Virus record (IMG/VR): IMGVR_UViG_3300032236_001850
Location: 52,392-116,391 of that record
Origin: a virus
Reading direction: 5' to 3' (one strand)
Length of the DNA: 64,000 nt
The notes under the pieces are model-generated. The model was not told the origin of the DNA. It did no database searches and saw nothing but the letters and a program-made list of their open reading frames with translations. Below, piece after piece: positions 13,696 to 52,697 of the stretch. Numbering within the stretch: the stretch's first letter is position 1; the number at the start of each line of letters is the position of its first letter. The translations under genes were made by a program, and so were the position numbers.

Positions 13696-13938
13696 ATGGA
13701 AGATTCCTCTCAAAATCTAGAAATTCACGAGGCAGCGGATAGAATATATCCACTGATGGCCAATTACAGCTTTGATGCACAGGAAGAGATTATAAGGGAT
13801 TTGCTGAGGGTGATCTACACAAGAAAACTCGATAGTAAAAAATATCATAAAGAGCATCTGGATATAGCAACAGAGCAATCGGAAAAAATGAAAGAAAAAT
13901 ACCCATTTATATTTATAAAACAGGATGAAAAACTTTAG
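13696..13938 (+). CDS. hypothetical protein
   Basis: ORF track. Confidence 0.35.
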   Translation: MEDSSQNLEIHEAADRIYPLMANYSFDAQEEIIRDLLRVIYTRKLDSKKYHKEHLDIATEQSEKMKEKYPFIFIKQDEKL

Positions 13939-14773
13939 CCTTGGTGATCGTATGAAGGAATTCTACGAAGACCGTTTTAGATATTATGTTCCACGCAGAA
14001 CATACACATTAATCAGAATTGACGGGAAAGCCTTCCACACCTACACAAAAGGTTTGGAGTCACCATTTGATGCAGGATTAATTGCAGACATGAATGAGAC
14101 TACTGCCTACCTTTGTAAAAATATTCAAGGTGCAAAATTTGGCTATGTTCAATCGGATGAGATCAGCATACTTATTACTGATTTTGATGAGAGAGACACC
14201 CAGATGTGGTTTGACGGAAATCTACAAAAGATGGCTTCTGTTGCAGCTTCTATGGCTACATCAAAATTCAACGAATTAAGAGTAGTCAGAGTCCTTAGAA
14301 AATACGAATGCCAATTTGATACACCATTACAAATGGACACCGATTCGATATTAGAATTTCTTTCTAAGATTAAAAAAGCGGAGTTCGATGCTAGAGTATT
14401 TCAGATTCCACAAAAAAGCGAGGTTGAGAACTATTTCATCTTCAGACAACAAGACGGTACCAGAAACTCCGTCCAGTCGGTTGCTCAGAGCCTATATTCA
14501 CAAAGTGAATTAAATGGCAAGAAGGAGAAGGATATGCAGGAGATGATTTTTCAAAAAGGTATCAACTGGAATGATTACCACTTCAGAGAAAAAAGAGGTG
14601 GAATTATTGCTAAGGTTCCGACAATGATGGAGGGTAAGAATGGTCAGGTTGAAAGACTGAAATGGCAAATGATTCCAACTCCTATATTCACTCAGGAGAG
14701 AGAATTCATGGACATTATGATTCCAGAGTTTGAAATTAAATCACCTAAATCTGAAGAAGTTGAGGTACAATAG
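13925..14773 (+). CDS. Thg1-like protein (tRNA-His guanylyltransferase family, 3'-5' polymerase)
   Basis: N-terminal GDRMKEFYEDRFRYYVP...IRIDGKAFHTYTKG resembles Thg1 N-terminus (...RLDGRnFH.F). Confidence 0.55.
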   Translation: MKNFSLGDRMKEFYEDRFRYYVPRRTYTLIRIDGKAFHTYTKGLESPFDAGLIADMNETTAYLCKNIQGAKFGYVQSDEISILITDFDERDTQMWFDGNLQKMASVAASMATSKFNELRVVRVLRKYECQFDTPLQMDTDSILEFLSKIKKAEFDARVFQIPQKSEVENYFIFRQQDGTRNSVQSVAQSLYSQSELNGKKEKDMQEMIFQKGINWNDYHFREKRGGIIAKVPTMMEGKNGQVERLKWQMIPTPIFTQEREFMDIMIPEFEIKSPKSEEVEVQ

Positions 14774-46228: not shown

Positions 46229-47050
46229 ATGAGTATCTTCAAAAAAGGTAAATTAAGTAAGCCAGAATTCATCTCCAAGATGATTGGCGCAGTCATCTCG
46301 CTTTTGGCATTTGGCTTCATTTGGACCATCCAGTTTCCAGGTGACACAGTAAAGGACAATGGTTCCTTAAGTTTTTCAGCAATGCACACAACATTCAACA
46401 TTGCTTTCTTGGTAGGCTTATTTGTCTACATTGTTATCCTAATGAGAAAATCATTAGATCAAAATTTAGAATGGGAATTCAGGGAGACAAAAGACACTGA
46501 TAAAAACCCATTTGGTAGTGTAACCGGACTATTGATTTTATTGCTTCTATTCGTTGGAGCAAGTAGATTCTATAAGGACTCAAAAGCCATCTATAACAAA
46601 ACAGTGGTATACCAAAATGACTATGCACAAGTAAATCAAGAGAAGGAAACATATTACGACAACATGTGGAAATCTTATACACTTAAACATAATGTGCTAA
46701 TCGAGAACAAAGCCACATTCATCGAGGTAACTAAGATGATTATGGACGGAAGACACGACGGTGAGCATCTTACTTGGAAATGGTTACAAGAAAACCAACC
46801 GGTGCCATATAACGAATTTACACGATTCTATGCTGATCTATCACAGTTCGTAGAAAGCCAAAGAGCAGGATATTTAGCACTAGAAGTTAAGTCACAAAAC
46901 ATTGCAAAAGCTAATAATATATTGCTGCAGACTTTCCCGAACAATATATACAACAAGGTTCTGAACAGATCACAGATTGATTATAAACCTGGATTTACCT
47001 CAATCAGAACAAGACAAGTATTCGAACACGGAATAGAAGAAGTTGAGTAA
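46229..47050 (+). CDS. membrane-anchored protein, paralog of 38760..39317
   Basis: see 38760; longer N-terminal membrane region. Confidence 0.45.
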   Translation: MSIFKKGKLSKPEFISKMIGAVISLLAFGFIWTIQFPGDTVKDNGSLSFSAMHTTFNIAFLVGLFVYIVILMRKSLDQNLEWEFRETKDTDKNPFGSVTGLLILLLLFVGASRFYKDSKAIYNKTVVYQNDYAQVNQEKETYYDNMWKSYTLKHNVLIENKATFIEVTKMIMDGRHDGEHLTWKWLQENQPVPYNEFTRFYADLSQFVESQRAGYLALEVKSQNIAKANNILLQTFPNNIYNKVLNRSQIDYKPGFTSIRTRQVFEHGIEEVE

Positions 47051-47055
47051 CATTT

Positions 47056-47086
47056 AAAAAATCGGGATTGAAAAATCCCGATTTTT
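47056..47086 (+). terminator. rho-independent terminator
   Basis: aaaaatcgggatt-gaaaa-atcccgattttt. Confidence 0.6.
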
Positions 47087-47153
47087 CTTCCAAATTATTT
47101 TTTTATTCAAAAAGGATTCCTTATATTTGCCTTGTAATTAAAAACAAAACAAA

Positions 47154-47222
47154 ATGGGAAAAGCAATAATAGGAATAATAGGAATAGCAGCAACTGTAAT
47201 AGTGATGATGCTAACCAAGTAA
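47154..47222 (+). CDS. 22-aa hydrophobic mini-protein
   Basis: MGKAIIGIIGIAATVIVMMLTK; canonical promoter motif 47096-47135 at the usual spacing. Confidence 0.3.
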   Translation: MGKAIIGIIGIAATVIVMMLTK

Positions 47223-47231
47223 ATTAAAAAA

Positions 47232-47308
47232 GGTCCTTAAACTTAATTGGCATGGCGCCAAACTGGCTTCTAAACCCAGCGTCTCCGGTTCGAGTCCGGT
47301 AGGGATCA
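47232..47308 (+). tRNA. tRNA (candidate anticodon CUA, amber-reading; assignment unverified)
   Basis: acceptor ggtcctt/agggatc (2 GU); canonical T-arm tccgg-ttcgagt-ccggt with G53-C61; stem ctgg(c)/(c)ccag around loop ttCTAaa with U33 and A37; D-arm not resolved by eye. Confidence 0.4.
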
Positions 47309-47322
47309 CAAAAAACAAAGTC

Positions 47323-47655
47323 ATGAGAGAATTAACATGGACAACATATTACGGTGAGGTCAAAAGATTTTCAGAGATTGATCATCAACATCTATCAAAC
47401 ATTCTTTGGTTCAGAGAGATTCTAACAGGTGCAAATCTTTGTAACTGCGAAGTTCAAAGAGCATTAAATTCAGAATTGAAGAGATTTGGTGGTAAGCGAT
47501 TACCTTGGAAACCATTACCAATTCCACAGGAAATAGAATGGATAAGAGGAGCTGCTTATATAAACCAAAAAGGTGAGATAATAGGAACAATGAAAACACC
47601 ATCACATTATGGTAAAGTTATTGGATCCGTTGCTCATATAGAAAAACTCAACTAG
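47323..47655 (+). CDS. hypothetical protein
   Basis: ORF track; sits between tRNA and RNA island. Confidence 0.45.
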   Translation: MRELTWTTYYGEVKRFSEIDHQHLSNILWFREILTGANLCNCEVQRALNSELKRFGGKRLPWKPLPIPQEIEWIRGAAYINQKGEIIGTMKTPSHYGKVIGSVAHIEKLN

Positions 47656-47807
47656 CGGAGAGTAGGGGTAACCCAAAAATAGCTAAGCTGTGTTAAGCGA
47701 CAGAACTGATAATCTGTTAGAAGCTAGGTTGGATGGCGGAAAGCTTATAATGTGAGAAATCATGTTATAACGTGGCAGACGCTAGATTAGAGAAAGGACG
47801 CGATCGG

Positions 47808-47886
47808 GGTTGGAATACCGATAATGGCGAAAATGGAAGAACCAACGCTTTAATTACCATTGTGGGTTCGAATCCCACTTCAACCA
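47808..47886 (+). ncRNA. tRNA-like element (alternative 5' end at 47727 with class-II D-arm start)
   Basis: acceptor ggttgga/ttcaacc, T-arm gtggg-ttcgaat-cccac; ggttgga-tg-gcg-gaa also at 47727; D/anticodon arms not canonical by eye. Confidence 0.3.
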
Positions 47887-47899
47887 CAAATCAACGATG

Positions 47900-48060
47900 T
47901 TAACTACCTGTGGTATCTACGGGGGCTAGGGAGAAACCTAGAAACTTACTTCGGTAAGTTAAGGAGCAAATGAGTTACAGTTCGGATTTAAACCTTAAAA
48001 AAGCTACTGCTTTAATGATATGTAGATTCAGAATAGCTTGTACTATTTAGGTACCTGAAC
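47900..48060 (+). ncRNA. structured RNA candidate (hairpins incl. UUCG tetraloop)
   Basis: ctagg-gagaaa-cctag hairpin; acttac-ttcg-gtaagt UUCG-tetraloop hairpin; no ORF; GC above surroundings. Confidence 0.25.
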
Positions 48061-48128
48061 CATTCAAAGAAGTTTTAGCAGATGATGATATTTTTTAGCT
48101 GCGGCGGAAATTTTTTGATTCATCAAAC

Positions 48129-48220
48129 AGCCAGGTAGGCACAAGGTCGGTTCGAGTCCGATGGAAGGTCATGGATGACGGGTAGCACCCTGCATGGAGG
48201 TTCGATTCCTTCACTGGCTA
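48129..48220 (+). tRNA. class-II-length tRNA-like gene (92 nt; possible tRNA-Ser, anticodon-arm placement unresolved)
   Basis: acceptor agccagg/actggct (6/7 bp), U8A9, T-arm ggagg-ttcgatt-ccttc; internal hairpin gtcgg-ttCGAgt-ccgat. Confidence 0.35.
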
Positions 48221-48351
48221 CAAAAACATAACAGGATTAAGTTCGACCTTGCCGAGATTAAGCCTCGTATCTTATATTTTTATTACGGTCTTTGCCGACC
48301 CAGAAATATCGGATATCGCTAGCGTGGTAGCGGGATGTTATGTTTTTATTT

Positions 48352-48633
48352 GATCAGATGGCGGAATTGGTAGACGCACCCCAAAAAACAAAGCATCTGA
48401 GGGGCGGTTAAATAAGGAGGACGCAGACTCCGAATAATCCAGAACAGCAAGGACGTAAGATGAAATGACATCTTCAGCCTTGTGTCGGAAGTTGGGAATT
48501 AACCCGTGATACCAGAATAACCGATGTTCCAAGGTAGGTTATTCTTTAGGTGTGAGATGAAGACCGTTAAGGTTGAGTGACACAAGGGATTGACAGGGTC
48601 CAAATCGTACAGGTTCGAATCCTGTTCTGATCA
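48352..48633 (+). tRNA. class-II tRNA candidate whose halves lie ~280 nt apart (possible intron or insertion-containing tRNA)
   Basis: gatcaga-tg-gcg-gaattggtaga-cgc (acceptor, U8G9, 3-bp D-stem, class-II D-loop) at 48352-48377; acagg-ttcgaat-cctgt T-arm + tctgatc acceptor strand (perfect 7-bp complement) + discriminator A at 48609-48633. Confidence 0.4.
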
Positions 48634-48790
48634 CAAAAAAATGGAATATGACATTTGATGAATGGATTTATAAGGTTTGCTTACATATAAGCAACAGGAC
48701 AAGAAAGGAGATTACTGATGTTTATTCATCAATTGATCTAACAGATGCAAAGCTAACATTTCTGGACGGGATTAATCCGGAAGAATATAA

Positions 48791-49051
48791 TTGAGTATGA
48801 TTGAGTACTATGTAGGTATTGATCCTAAAGACAGAGAAAAGTTTGATTCTTATGTTGAATATCTGAATAATGATCAGCAATGCGACCCTAAATGTAAAAT
48901 AGAGGTTCTGCATGAATTTGATGATCCTGACGGATACTATACATTTATGATTCAGGGTCATTGGGATTCATACACTAAATTTTTAGGAGAAACCGGATAC
49001 GGTAGAGAAACGGATGGATTTGTTAAATCAATCAATCACTACGAGGAATAG
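48791..49051 (+). CDS. hypothetical protein
   Basis: ORF track. Confidence 0.4.
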   Translation: MSMIEYYVGIDPKDREKFDSYVEYLNNDQQCDPKCKIEVLHEFDDPDGYYTFMIQGHWDSYTKFLGETGYGRETDGFVKSINHYEE

Positions 49052-50675: not shown

Positions 50676-51021
50676 TTATTAGTAATTCTCCCATGACCTC
50701 TATGAGACCAACGAGCTTCTGAAATTCAACCTGTTCCAGTTTTATAGATCCAGCTGTTCCTTTAACTAATGCTTTTACCAAAGCTTCCATCTCATCCTTC
50801 ATCTCAGCTGCATCGAATTTACCAGCAGCAGCTTTTTCATAAACCGGAAGTTTAACTCTGAAATGATGGTAGGTTAAAAGCGCATCCCCACCTTTTTCTT
50901 TAGCAGCTTCAGTTATCTTGGTTGCACCAGCTAATCTTGTTTTTGCAAACTCTTCGAAGCTTTCGCCTTTTTTATCTCCTTCGTTTAGAAAATCCGAATA
51001 TAATTTAATGTAGTTGTCCAT
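50662..51021 (-). CDS. hypothetical protein
   Basis: ORF track. Confidence 0.4.
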   Translation of the reverse strand: MDNYIKLYSDFLNEGDKKGESFEEFAKTRLAGATKITEAAKEKGGDALLTYHHFRVKLPVYEKAAAGKFDAAEMKDEMEALVKALVKGTAGSIKLEQVEFQKLVGLIEVMGELLIRKGA

Positions 51022-51866
51022 TATGATAAATTTCTTTTGTCTGTATTTAACGAACCAAGCTTTCCTTGATTTTTAAGTTTAATGTAACGATCTGTAGCAA
51101 ATCTAGGTCTTGCATAAGTCATTATATCTAATCCCTGATTATTTTTAACAATCTCCAATGCTTTCTCTAGTGTTTCAACCATATATCGGCAATCATAAAG
51201 AGCATCGTGTGCACCATTAGGATCAACACCCAATCCTGCGGAAACCTTAGGTAAAGAGGATGTAGGTAACTTACCACTATTAGATCTTCCTATCTTATCC
51301 AATATTGCAGCAGCTTCTGGTTCTGTTTCTGCAAGTTTCTCCAATGTAGGTAAAAGGAAATACCCAAAGAAATCTTTAGTGTCAAATATCTCATGATCCA
51401 ATCCACCAAATTCTTTTCTAACATTTATCATTGGCATATCGAAAGGAGCATTTTGAATAAGTAGAATAACATCACCAAATCCATCTATAAATTCTTTAAG
51501 TTCAGTAAGTACTTCCTGTTCATCGAAGTATTGTCCGCCACTTTCTCCGTATTTATTAAACTTTAGAGCTCCAGATATTCTAGATCCAGGTAATAGTTTT
51601 TCTGCTCTTATGTTTTGATTGAGTTTTATCTTCTTGTTGTAATCTCCTATCTCTTCAAAAGTCAAAGTATCAAAATCAAACTCATAGGCAACAGCAGCTA
51701 CTTGAGTTAATTGTTCTTGTCTTGGACCTCTAAGTCCAGTTGTTTCGGTATCAAGAGCAATAAAAGTGTATTCCTTTCTTTTTTCTAACCAATCTAATAG
51801 TTCTGATTGCGTTAAATTTTTAATGCTTTCATTTAAAAATTGCGAAAATGTTGATAAATTTTTCAT
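51021..51866 (-). CDS. DnaQ-like DEDDh 3'-5' exonuclease
   Basis: Exo I motif FIALDTETTGL; Exo III motif HDALYDCRYM. Confidence 0.65.
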   Translation of the reverse strand: MKNLSTFSQFLNESIKNLTQSELLDWLEKRKEYTFIALDTETTGLRGPRQEQLTQVAAVAYEFDFDTLTFEEIGDYNKKIKLNQNIRAEKLLPGSRISGALKFNKYGESGGQYFDEQEVLTELKEFIDGFGDVILLIQNAPFDMPMINVRKEFGGLDHEIFDTKDFFGYFLLPTLEKLAETEPEAAAILDKIGRSNSGKLPTSSLPKVSAGLGVDPNGAHDALYDCRYMVETLEKALEIVKNNQGLDIMTYARPRFATDRYIKLKNQGKLGSLNTDKRNLS

Positions 51867-51968: not shown

Positions 51969-52697
51969 ATGGAATTAAAAAGAAATCCTAAAGCTCCTTC
52001 TAATAACAGAAGCTGGTCAACAATGGACGATTCAACATTAATCAAAATGGCAAGAGGTGGTGCTTCGGCTGCAGAGATTGCAAAAATCTTAGGAAGAACT
52101 GTTATGGCGGTAACTACAAGAAAACACAATCTTCATGTTGATGTTCGTTTAACATCATCTAAAGGTAAAGGTGTGGATGCACCAAAATCAGTTTCTGTTA
52201 GAAATAGAAACAAGAAAAAAGAATTGCCAGTTAGAGTTATTTCAAGAACTGCTGCACCACAACCCGTTAATGTTGTTTCAGCGGGAATCACAAAGGTAAC
52301 AAAACCAGTTTGGACTAAAGAGGAAGACGCTAAACTTTTATCTTTGGCTGCTGAGGGTAAATCAGCAAAGGAGATTGGAAAGATTCTAGGAAGAACATCA
52401 GTTGCTGTAACTGTTAGAAAATACGGATTGAATAAATCTCAAGAGTTAACTAACAAAAAAGCAAACGTAAAAGTTGACAACAAAGCCGACGAGAAAAGAT
52501 CTGCAATGTTGGCGAGAATGGAAAAAATGAGAGCTGCTAAGGGTAAAAATAAAAAATTACCAGTAGTGGAAGAAGCTGCTTCGGTTCCAGCTACCAAAAT
52601 GGAAAAAATTGTTTCTTCAGCTGAAAGCGATTTTGATGCTCTTTCAAGAATTGCTAAAAGTACAGGAGCTACAATCACAGTGGTTTTTGGAAAATAG
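51969..52697 (+). CDS. DNA-binding protein with two HTH repeats
   Basis: ORF track (51942); ATG 51969 fits motif spacing; repeats WSTMDDSTLIKMARGGASAAEIAKILGRTVMAVTTRK / WTKEEDAKLLSLAAEGKSAKEIGKILGRTSVAVTVRK. Confidence 0.5.
   Translation: MELKRNPKAPSNNRSWSTMDDSTLIKMARGGASAAEIAKILGRTVMAVTTRKHNLHVDVRLTSSKGKGVDAPKSVSVRNRNKKKELPVRVISRTAAPQPVNVVSAGITKVTKPVWTKEEDAKLLSLAAEGKSAKEIGKILGRTSVAVTVRKYGLNKSQELTNKKANVKVDNKADEKRSAMLARMEKMRAAKGKNKKLPVVEEAASVPATKMEKIVSSAESDFDALSRIAKSTGATITVVFGK

Follow-up and report, generated by a model that had tools for sequence, protein, structure and literature searches.

The RNA island and its parts

We analysed a stretch of 64,000 nucleotides (nt) of viral DNA, positions 52,392 to 116,391 of the IMG/VR record IMGVR_UViG_3300032236_001850, which is called the window here. 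Our subject is an island of tRNA-like and structured RNAs that occupies the block 47223-48660 of the window, and particularly its last element, E6, in which the top half of a leucine tRNA encloses a long, unrelated interior. A former reading of this block, made from the letters alone (the sequence-only reading), had taken E6 for a tRNA gene interrupted by an intron or a mobile insert. All the parts of the island lie on the + strand and follow each other in this order (ORF, open reading frame; aa, amino acids; bp, base pairs):

47122..47141, + strand: promoter-like motif TATATTTGCCTTGTAATTAA that heads the island
47154..47222, + strand: tiny hydrophobic ORF of 22 aa (MGKAIIGIIGIAATVIVMMLTK), with a similar ORF in the related loci L003 and L043
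47232..47308, + strand: E1, a non-canonical tRNA-like RNA
47323..47655, + strand: ORF110 (110 aa), a conserved protein inside the island with 38 homologues, down to E = 1e-66
47656..47726, + strand: E2a, a conserved leader upstream of E2, possibly a small structured RNA
47727..47886, + strand: E2, a tRNA-Leu-like scaffold of 160 nt
47887..48128, + strand: E3, an orphan structured RNA of around 240 nt that contains a UUCG hairpin
48129..48220, + strand: E4, with two T-arms (48146-48162 and 48196-48212) and a terminal acceptor-like stem AGCCAG/CTGGCT followed by A73
48221..48351, + strand: E5, a structured spacer with an 11-bp closing stem AAAAACATAAC/GTTATGTTTTT, found only in this lineage
48352..48633, + strand: E6, a tRNA-Leu-like scaffold RNA of 282 nt, with no CCA encoded

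The block is richer in GC than its flanks (0.39-0.47 versus 0.29-0.37) and is indeed a phage island of tRNA-like and structured RNAs, as the sequence-only reading had said. However, it is not free of ORFs as had been claimed, because ORF110 lies within it; this protein gave no Pfam match and no PHROG match. There are 6 exact matches to the T-arm consensus GGTTCRANTCC in the window, none of them on the - strand, and 5 of these 6 are within 47287-48622. We estimate that around 0.2 exact matches would be expected per whole window in a sequence of uniform composition. The five exact GGTTCGANTCC T-arms span 47284-48625. They had been credited with matching acceptor strands, which is not correct for all of them: the T-arm at 48146-48162, in E4, is an orphan with no credible acceptor partner.

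ARAGORN at default settings reported 0 genes in the whole window and Rfam at the gathering threshold called no tRNA in the block. A BLAST search of the block against cultured phages (INPHARED) gave no match.

Anatomy and conservation of the 282-nt element

E6 is composed of the following parts:

48352-48358: 5' strand of the acceptor, GATCAGA
48359-48360: U8 and G9
48361-48377: D-arm (GCGGAATTGGTAGACGC)
48379-48404: hairpin CCCC/GGGG with an 18-nt loop, in the position of the anticodon arm
48405-48607: domain of around 200 nt closed by CGGTT/AATCG
48609-48625: T-arm ACAGG-TTCGAAT-CCTGT
48626-48632: 3' strand of the acceptor, TCTGATC
48633: discriminator A73

The following ORF begins at 48648. 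The tRNA 5' half at 48352-48377 and the complementary strand right after a T-arm are just as the sequence-only reading described them. In a cross-pairing matrix of all the acceptor strands of the island, the 5' strand of E6 formed 7/7 Watson-Crick pairs with the 3' strand of E6 alone and, judged by this pairing, the two distant halves are one molecule. The acceptor GATCAGA therefore has a single perfect complement, as had been stated. Nevertheless, when the register is shifted by 2 nt, TCAGATG (48354-48360) finds a second perfect 7-nt complement, CATCTGA, at 48394-48400 in the loop of the first hairpin, and this could give an alternative local pairing.

E6 has the whole top half of a tRNA, namely the 7-bp acceptor, a D-arm with G18G19, a T-arm of the type GTTCRANYC and the discriminator. 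It has neither the 5-bp anticodon stem and 7-nt loop nor the above-threshold score of a canonical tRNA. Regarding its sequence features, it carries a leucine identity of the E. coli type (U48, T-loop UUCGAAU and A73), and its positions 8-26 are equal to the D-arm of E. coli tRNA-Leu. The z-score of its single-sequence fold is modest (-2.19).

The insert of E6 was found at 99.6% identity in the orthologous loci L043, L044 and L046, which are 98% identical to the window, and is missing elsewhere. The interior gave no match among all the fetched loci, and a 20-mer taken from it gave nothing in IMG/VR. A 19-mer had two matches in GTDB genomes, but neither of them extends past 19 nt and we discarded both as chance. 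The only difference between E6 and its three orthologues is at 48382, where a C-to-U change makes U.G out of a C-G pair. Compared with L043, this is 1 change in 282 nt, whereas 328 nt of ORF110 accumulated 14 changes (Fisher p = 0.0013) and the coding block upstream diverges by 2.4% (p = 0.017). Therefore, the whole 282 nt, insert included, looks constrained at the sequence level.

A family of elements with the same chassis

Related loci, designated here by L and a number, were found through the flanking proteins and through a conserved 18- to 20-mer of E3 in IMG/VR and in the JGI metagenomes, and further ones through homologues of ORF110 and the contigs encoding them. In order to collect the family, all the loci were scanned for a T-arm with a matching acceptor, and elements with at least 6 of the 7 acceptor pairs were kept. 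The locus L037, which came from the metagenome scan, was an unrelated chance match and was rejected.

The core E1-ORF110-E2a-E2 site-E3-E4 is syntenic among the relatives, with 77-98% identity, and two regions are hypervariable: the body at the E2 site and everything downstream of E4. Related T4-like jumbo-phage contigs contain at least 20 distinct scaffold elements of 57-282 nt, which share what we call the chassis: an acceptor similar to GGTCAGG, then TG followed by GCGGAATTGGTAGACGC, usually U48, then ACAGGTTCGAATCCTGT and A73. The conserved D-arm of the chassis is GCGGAAUUGGUAGACGC, with G18G19, and in 6 distinct elements positions 8-26 are identical to those of E6. A73 is followed by C in all the tabulated scaffold elements (16/16), and none of these 16 encodes CCA.

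The chassis is constant and the sequences between D-arm and T-arm are not. These middles measure 26-231 nt and show no mutual BLAST similarity. The canonical anticodon arm, with a 5-bp stem and a 7-nt loop, is missing from them according to constrained folds, even in the elements of 77-93 nt. Since relatives of nearly normal length also lack the 7-nt anticodon loop, a mere insertion into a normal tRNA does not account for the odd middle. The orthologous site between E2a and E3 is occupied by four different bodies, of 160, 82, 157 and 145 nt, the 157-nt body being unrelated.

Despite this variability the stems are maintained. In the acceptor and T-arm columns of 20 elements of 57-282 nt, 98.8% of the cells are paired, a percentage inflated by the acceptor-pair filter described above; 11 of the 12 pairs are double-changed, and this compensatory diversity of pair types is not affected by the filter. 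None of 500 shuffles reached any of the five measures, and slid registers were 33-49% paired.

E2 was the second case of separated halves proposed by the sequence-only reading, and it is real. Its acceptor strand GGTTGGA at 47727 pairs with TTCAACC at 47879-47885, and compensatory changes keep the pairing in the orthologues (for instance, AGTCAGG/TCTGACT in L002). The D-loop of E2 holds an inserted 11-bp hairpin capped by GAAA, and around 85 nt of structured sequence take the place of the anticodon and variable arms. RNAalifold on four E2 orthologues gave 37 pairs, 14 of them with compensatory changes, including pairs of the acceptor, of the D-loop hairpin and of the inner hairpin. The helix ATTRGAG/CTYYAAT that closes the inner domain covaries in the window, L001 and L002, as read from the alignment. 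We also considered whether E2 really begins at an inner copy of GGTTGGA at 47808, as a tRNA of 78 nt, and rejected this because the inner copy is not kept in L002 and the outer strand covaries. In one further pair of elements, L038:3724 and L051:5134, an insert helix changes from GAAUA/UAUUC to GAAAC/GUUUC. Taking together the covarying insert helices of E2 and of this pair and the low divergence of E6, we consider, from sequence comparison, that the scaffold inserts are under selection.

Several relatives differ from the window in ways that we record here. The order of the modules is shuffled between L034 and L038. L034 is a 1.46-kb metagenome contig with unrelated GC-rich sequence at both ends (1-125 and 1147-1461), and one of the junctions falls within a T-loop. 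Probably this contig is a chimeric assembly, whose source may be abundant RNA or repeats. In L001 a GIY-YIG-like ORF (8536-9210) stands right after a tRNA-like element, in place of E5 and E6, and in L035 an EndoVII/HNH-like ORF (1057-1337) stands right after a tRNA-like element of the equivalent island, both assigned by eye. L043 has an extra ORF of 246 aa (2817-3557) between E1 and ORF110, despite 98% genome identity, and the two small ORFs downstream of E6 in the window (48648-49051) are missing from it.

Intron, pseudogene and tmRNA explanations

The sequence-only reading was right in most of its anatomy and saw correctly a large insertion of around 200 nt relative to a tRNA-Leu body. The split feature is real and is more than chance, but its interpretation as a self-splicing intron or mobile ribozyme in a decoding tRNA is not supported. 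We weighed four explanations other than a scaffold RNA.

i) An intron of the protein-dependent or 'enigmatic' type of the Lak megaphages, where some activity of the phage or of the host removes the insert and leaves a decoding tRNA. Devoto et al. reported oversized tRNA genes with conserved inserts in huge Bacteroidota phages as introns (10.1101/356790). E6 resembles them in being an oversized tRNA-like gene of a huge phage whose insert is kept in some relatives and missing in others, and the window encodes a Thg1-like tRNA repair enzyme. Furthermore, ARAGORN with introns allowed (-i) does build a 74-nt tRNA from E6, called 'tRNA-Val(gac), 209-nt intron at position 31'. This model needs a mismatched 4-bp anticodon stem that borrows a base of the D-stem. 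We shuffled the 231-nt interior with the ends kept, and a full-length intron-tRNA call was still obtained in 207/300 cases (69%). On 10 paralogues the program either gave nothing or gave Val, Ser, His, Ile, Ala or Pro, the insertion points ranging from 31 to 38. With shuffles called so often and paralogues so inconsistently, the call on E6 carries no information, and we rejected it; the check by an intron-tolerant tRNA finder proposed with the sequence-only reading thus gave no support to the intron. Excision does not leave a tRNA with an assignable, conserved anticodon, and the relatives of near-normal length without anticodon loops also speak against this explanation. Finally, 55 ORFs of the window, which is a fraction of the genome, were scanned with Pfam and gave neither a splicing endonuclease nor an RNA ligase. 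We regard this explanation as unlikely.

ii) Decaying tRNA pseudogenes or recombination scars, that is, functionless tRNA-Leu copies broken by junk insertions in a hotspot of homing endonucleases. The mosaic, shuffled order of the modules and the homing endonuclease genes of the relatives would fit, as would the non-homologous middles and the orphan T-arm of E4. Nevertheless, every copy has its acceptor and T stems kept paired by compensatory covariation, 6 distinct elements share an identical D-arm, the insert helices covary, E6 is more conserved than the neighbouring genes and GC is raised relative to the flanks. Decay is in our opinion an improbable account, on a level with the previous one.

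iii) A tRNA-Leu gene interrupted by a self-splicing group I intron, comparable to that of cyanobacterial tRNA-Leu(UAA). A self-splicing group I insert is what the sequence-only reading proposed. The 5' half is of the tRNA-Leu type, an insert of 209-231 nt is within the size range of small group I introns, and related islands have homing endonuclease genes. Nevertheless, Rfam in E-value mode (E up to 10) over the 2.1 kb of 46900-49000 gave no match to Intron_gpI, group II introns, ribozymes or tmRNA across E6, no tRNA match over E6 and none of these matches over E2, so the covariance-model check proposed for the intron came out negative. The insert of E6 is not flanked by an intact anticodon stem, as an intron of the anticodon loop would be. 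It holds no homing endonuclease gene and has no homologue beyond the 98%-identical contigs, and those sister inserts that are as short as 26-50 nt or are located in the D-loop cannot be group I introns. One insertion of E2 is in the D-loop, a position for which no type of bacterial tRNA intron is known. This origin is very improbable.

iv) A divergent transfer-messenger RNA (tmRNA), with a tRNA-like domain and an internal tag-coding message, is the least credible explanation: the tRNA-like ends, a length of 282 nt that is within the tmRNA range and the tmRNAs encoded by the more distant relatives L006 and L022 would suit it, but it fails because the acceptor has U3-A70 and not the G3.U70 required for alanine charging, the D-arm is fully formed unlike that of tmRNA, no plausible resume codon or tag ORF can be read, the ARAGORN tmRNA search finds none at E6 and the Rfam tmRNA model matched just a bare 17-nt T-arm outside E6.

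A proposed tRNA-Leu-derived scaffold

We think it somewhat more probable than not that E6 belongs, as its largest member, to a phage family of scaffold RNAs derived from tRNA-Leu and is not a tRNA gene awaiting splicing. The members keep the top half of a leucine tRNA, and the region of the anticodon and variable arms is a permissive site for structured domains of 26-231 nt, which differ without relation between paralogues and even between orthologous sites. The conserved part of the chassis is the part of a tRNA that is recognised by RNase P, RNase Z and the CCA-adding enzyme and, in the case of leucine, by the synthetase as well. In the mechanism that we propose, the island would be transcribed as one unit, together with its small ORFs, from the motif at 47122-47141. 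The host RNase P would recognise the tRNA-like top halves and cut at their 5' ends, and RNase Z or exonucleases together with the CCA-adding enzyme would mature the 3' ends. This processing would release and stabilise each scaffold RNA with its cargo domain and, at the same time, the cuts would punctuate the transcript and free the RNAs interspersed between scaffolds, such as the 240-nt E3. The repeated scaffold sequences may also serve as recombination points where, with the help of homing endonucleases, cassettes are shuffled between genomes, which fits the module orders of L034 and L038 and the homing endonuclease genes of L001 and L035.

The scaffold RNAs might also be chargeable with leucine. 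The features of E6 agree with the leucine identity set of E. coli, so these RNAs may be leucylated. Leucine charging depends on A73 and on tertiary contacts of the D-loop with the T-loop (PMC9976931). The E. coli-type identity set of the leucyl-tRNA synthetase (LeuRS) comprises A73, A14, A15-U48, G18G19 and A20a, and the anticodon and the variable arm are dispensable (PMC9976931).

Some points weigh against the scaffold interpretation. Processing and stability are predicted from the resemblance to tRNA, and the pairing percentage is raised by the filter, as mentioned above. The 231-nt interior of E6 has no homologue beyond the 98%-identical contigs, so its internal structure depends on a single-sequence fold. 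The low divergence of E6 comes down to one substitution, and a recent transfer could explain it. The LeuRS of the host, probably a Bacteroidota, may follow identity rules different from those of E. coli. Moreover, the authors who described the similar oversized tRNA genes of Lak megaphages read them as intron-bearing (10.1101/356790).

A wider proposal, which we put forward tentatively and consider doubtful as a whole, is that a natural 'tRNA scaffold' is in use among jumbo phages that infect Bacteroidota: a leucylatable chassis, matured by RNase P, 3' processing and CCA addition, that carries exchangeable cargo and acts as a recombination site, alongside a new class of RNA represented by E3. 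Possible roles of the cargo are those of decoys, aptamers or guides directed at host functions or defences. To our knowledge, no natural tRNA scaffold with exchangeable inserts has been described in bacteria or phages. Should the predicted stability and processing hold, these RNAs would be the natural counterpart of the engineered tRNA scaffold and a new route by which phages deploy fast-evolving non-coding RNA domains. The scaffold offers a testable alternative to the 'enigmatic intron' view of oversized tRNA genes in huge phages, and a chassis that has the E. coli leucine identity set but no anticodon raises the question of aminoacylated, non-decoding RNAs during infection. There is also a consequence for annotation, since standard tRNA finders miss the scaffold elements and intron-tolerant ones over-call, as seen in the 69% of false calls of our control.

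E3 and the other RNAs of the island

E3 is an unclassified candidate RNA family. It matches no Rfam family, either at the gathering threshold or in E-value mode, and its mean column identity over 8 sequences is 91%, across phages whose flanking 273-aa protein shares merely 34-86% identity. RNAalifold gave 69 pairs, 9 of them with compensatory changes. The hairpins at 47926-47960 indicated by the sequence-only reading, one of them C(UUCG)G, exist and belong to this RNA. Further features of E3 are a single A6 tract (CCUUAAAAAAGC) and a pair of U6 tracts on the two sides of a small GC hairpin within the covarying stem GAUGA/UCAUC, an arrangement reminiscent of U-rich triple-helix clamps. In the loci with flanks, its upstream border is usually the 3' end (A73-C) of one tRNA-like element and its downstream border is always the 5' acceptor strand of the next. 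L034 is the exception, with a spacer between the upstream element and E3.

The acceptor of E1 has 7 bp, its linker 8 nt and its D-hairpin 5 bp and a loop of 5 nt; the anticodon stem, of 4 bp, bears the loop C-UUCUAAA-C, whose anticodon is CUA. It scores 23.6 bits against the Rfam tRNA model (gathering score 29), and ARAGORN reports it only at a relaxed threshold, as 'tRNA-Pyl(cta)'. L002, L003 and L038 show covariation in the D-hairpin, the anticodon stem and the acceptor, and they retain CUA. Irregularities are visible: the D-region is aberrant, and either the loop has 9 nt or the 31-39 pair is mismatched. Two allelic forms exist among close relatives, one in the window, L003 and L038 and the other in L002 and L043. 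We considered stop-codon recoding as the reason for the CUA anticodon and discarded it: reading TAG as sense gave no specific gain in ORF length and TAG terminates 15 of 82 ORFs, so there is no evidence of recoding in the window.

E2a is 93% identical in L003, where ORF110 is missing, and has zero substitutions with respect to L043. The terminal stem of E4 covaries (GTCAG/CTGAC in L001), and this element is kept in L001, L036, L038, L043, L051 and L053. E5 has a minimum free energy of -34 kcal/mol (z = -2.48) and shows 2 substitutions in L043, one of which changes an A-U pair of the closing stem to G.U. The hairpin CGAG-AUUAAGC-CUCG of E5 (48253-48267) resembles a UAA (Leu) anticodon arm with U33 and G37, although its stem is just 4 bp, and this likeness may well be chance.

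The phage, its promoter motif and a second island

Among the proteins encoded in the window are a Gp23-type capsid protein, NAPRTase, NADAR, a Thg1-like protein and an RNase T-like exonuclease, and the proteins that flank the island have relatives on contigs of IMG/VR that reach 430 kb. From these proteins and relatives we conclude that the source genome is, by its gene content, that of a T4-like jumbo phage. Further features concerned with RNA are the following:

13925-14773, + strand: Thg1-like protein (tRNA-His guanylyltransferase / 3'-5' polymerase), Pfam E = 8.7e-25
51021-51866, - strand: RNase T-like exonuclease
47056-47085: hairpin and T-run, read as the terminator of the gene upstream of the island

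The Thg1-like and RNase T-like proteins are candidate enzymes for the repair or trimming of tRNA ends and might act on the tRNA-like RNAs. Pair 1-72 is mismatched in a few copies of the scaffold.

The motif TATATTTGNNNTGTAATTAA, whose recurring form is TATATTTGCnnTGTAATTAA, has 10 sites in the window at no more than 3 mismatches, a number reached by 0 of 100 shuffles. Nine of the 10 are on the + strand, mostly around 5-50 nt upstream of ORF starts; examples are the sites at 3988, 44924, 47122 and 51937. It is probably a class of phage promoter, and its TAnnTTTG-like core suggests that the host is a Bacteroidota. No enrichment was seen for the strict Bacteroidota promoter consensus TTTG-N17-23-TAnnTTTG, and we used the phage-specific motif instead.

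A second RNA island lies at 3950-5050 of the window (+ strand), preceded by a small ORF and by the site 3988-4007 of this motif. It contains a 57-nt tRNA-like element without any anticodon arm (4271-4327; Rfam tRNA, 34.2 bits), a 125-nt tRNA-like element (4530-4654; 30.8 bits) in which around 40 nt replace the anticodon loop and which also has a long variable arm, and around 600 nt of GC-rich, ORF-free sequence without Rfam match.

Comparison with known systems

i) Oversized tRNA genes of Lak megaphages. These genes with 'enigmatic introns', present also in another huge phage, are the nearest precedent (10.1101/356790). Both cases concern huge phages, with Bacteroidota hosts there and probably here, and overlong tRNA-like genes that the standard bacterial tRNA finders miss, and in both the inserts are highly conserved among close relatives and missing from others (10.1101/356790). 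However, the excised Lak product has an assigned anticodon (Phe, Gly, Thr or Tyr), whereas no consistent anticodon arm can be rebuilt here. Here, one tRNA-Leu-type chassis is repeated, with inserts that are swapped at the same locus and are in some cases in the D-loop.

ii) Group I introns of tRNA genes, such as tRNA-Leu(UAA). The common features are a gene of the tRNA-Leu type and 200-250 nt between D-arm and T-arm (PMC3984707). Nevertheless, our elements have no covariance-model match, no flanking anticodon stem and no conserved core, and sister elements carry inserts too short for ribozymes.

iii) tmRNA and YrlA. These RNAs, which can be encoded by phages, keep the mimicry of acceptor, T-arm and D-arm and replace the anticodon domain (PMC4201824), as our elements do. 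E6 is not a tmRNA, since it has neither G3.U70 nor a tag ORF, and it is not a YrlA RNA, since it has the normal end topology of a tRNA, without circular permutation, and no Ro-binding helix. YrlA gave no match in the window. In the equivalent island of L027 there is a circularly permuted tRNA-like sequence resembling YrlA (2490-2594, - strand), which at 34 bits is below the threshold of 69, and this RNA-rich region also has a tRNA-like element with a hairpin inserted in the D-loop (2409-2498, - strand). By its sequence, E6 lacks the features that define tmRNA, YrlA, tRNAs with a group I intron and canonical tRNAs.

iv) The tRNA gene cluster of T4. This cluster includes the stable RNAs species 1 and 2 (rnaC and rnaD) and the homing endonuclease SegB, and its processing depends on RNase P. 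Like our islands, which are predicted to be polycistronic too, it belongs to a T4-like phage and mixes tRNA-type genes, structured RNAs, small ORFs and homing endonuclease genes. The T4 tRNAs, however, are canonical decoders, whereas no scaffold element of our island passes the tRNA model and a repeated chassis with variable bodies is found instead.

v) MALAT1/mascRNA signals and the engineered 'tRNA scaffold'. There too a tRNA-like fold is used for maturation by RNase P, RNase Z and CCA addition and for stabilising an unrelated RNA inserted into the anticodon arm or next to it (PMC3753655). Those systems are eukaryotic or man-made, and in our phages the processing is predicted.

vi) Phage tRNA islands with GOLLD or ROOL. 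Large orphan structured RNAs lie beside phage tRNA genes in these islands as well (PMC12286853; PMC5737381). The window has no GOLLD/ROOL match (RF02032 or ROOL model), and E3 and E6 match no Rfam family. Nevertheless, L027 encodes a GOLLD RNA (1087-1494, - strand; 306 bits, E = 5e-87) around 1.5 kb downstream of the homologous island, and this RNA together with the sub-threshold YrlA-like sequence ties our islands to the GOLLD/ROOL 'tRNA island' context (PMC12286853).

We rate the scaffold family as akin to the tRNA-like, non-decoding RNAs or to the oversized tRNA genes of huge phages.

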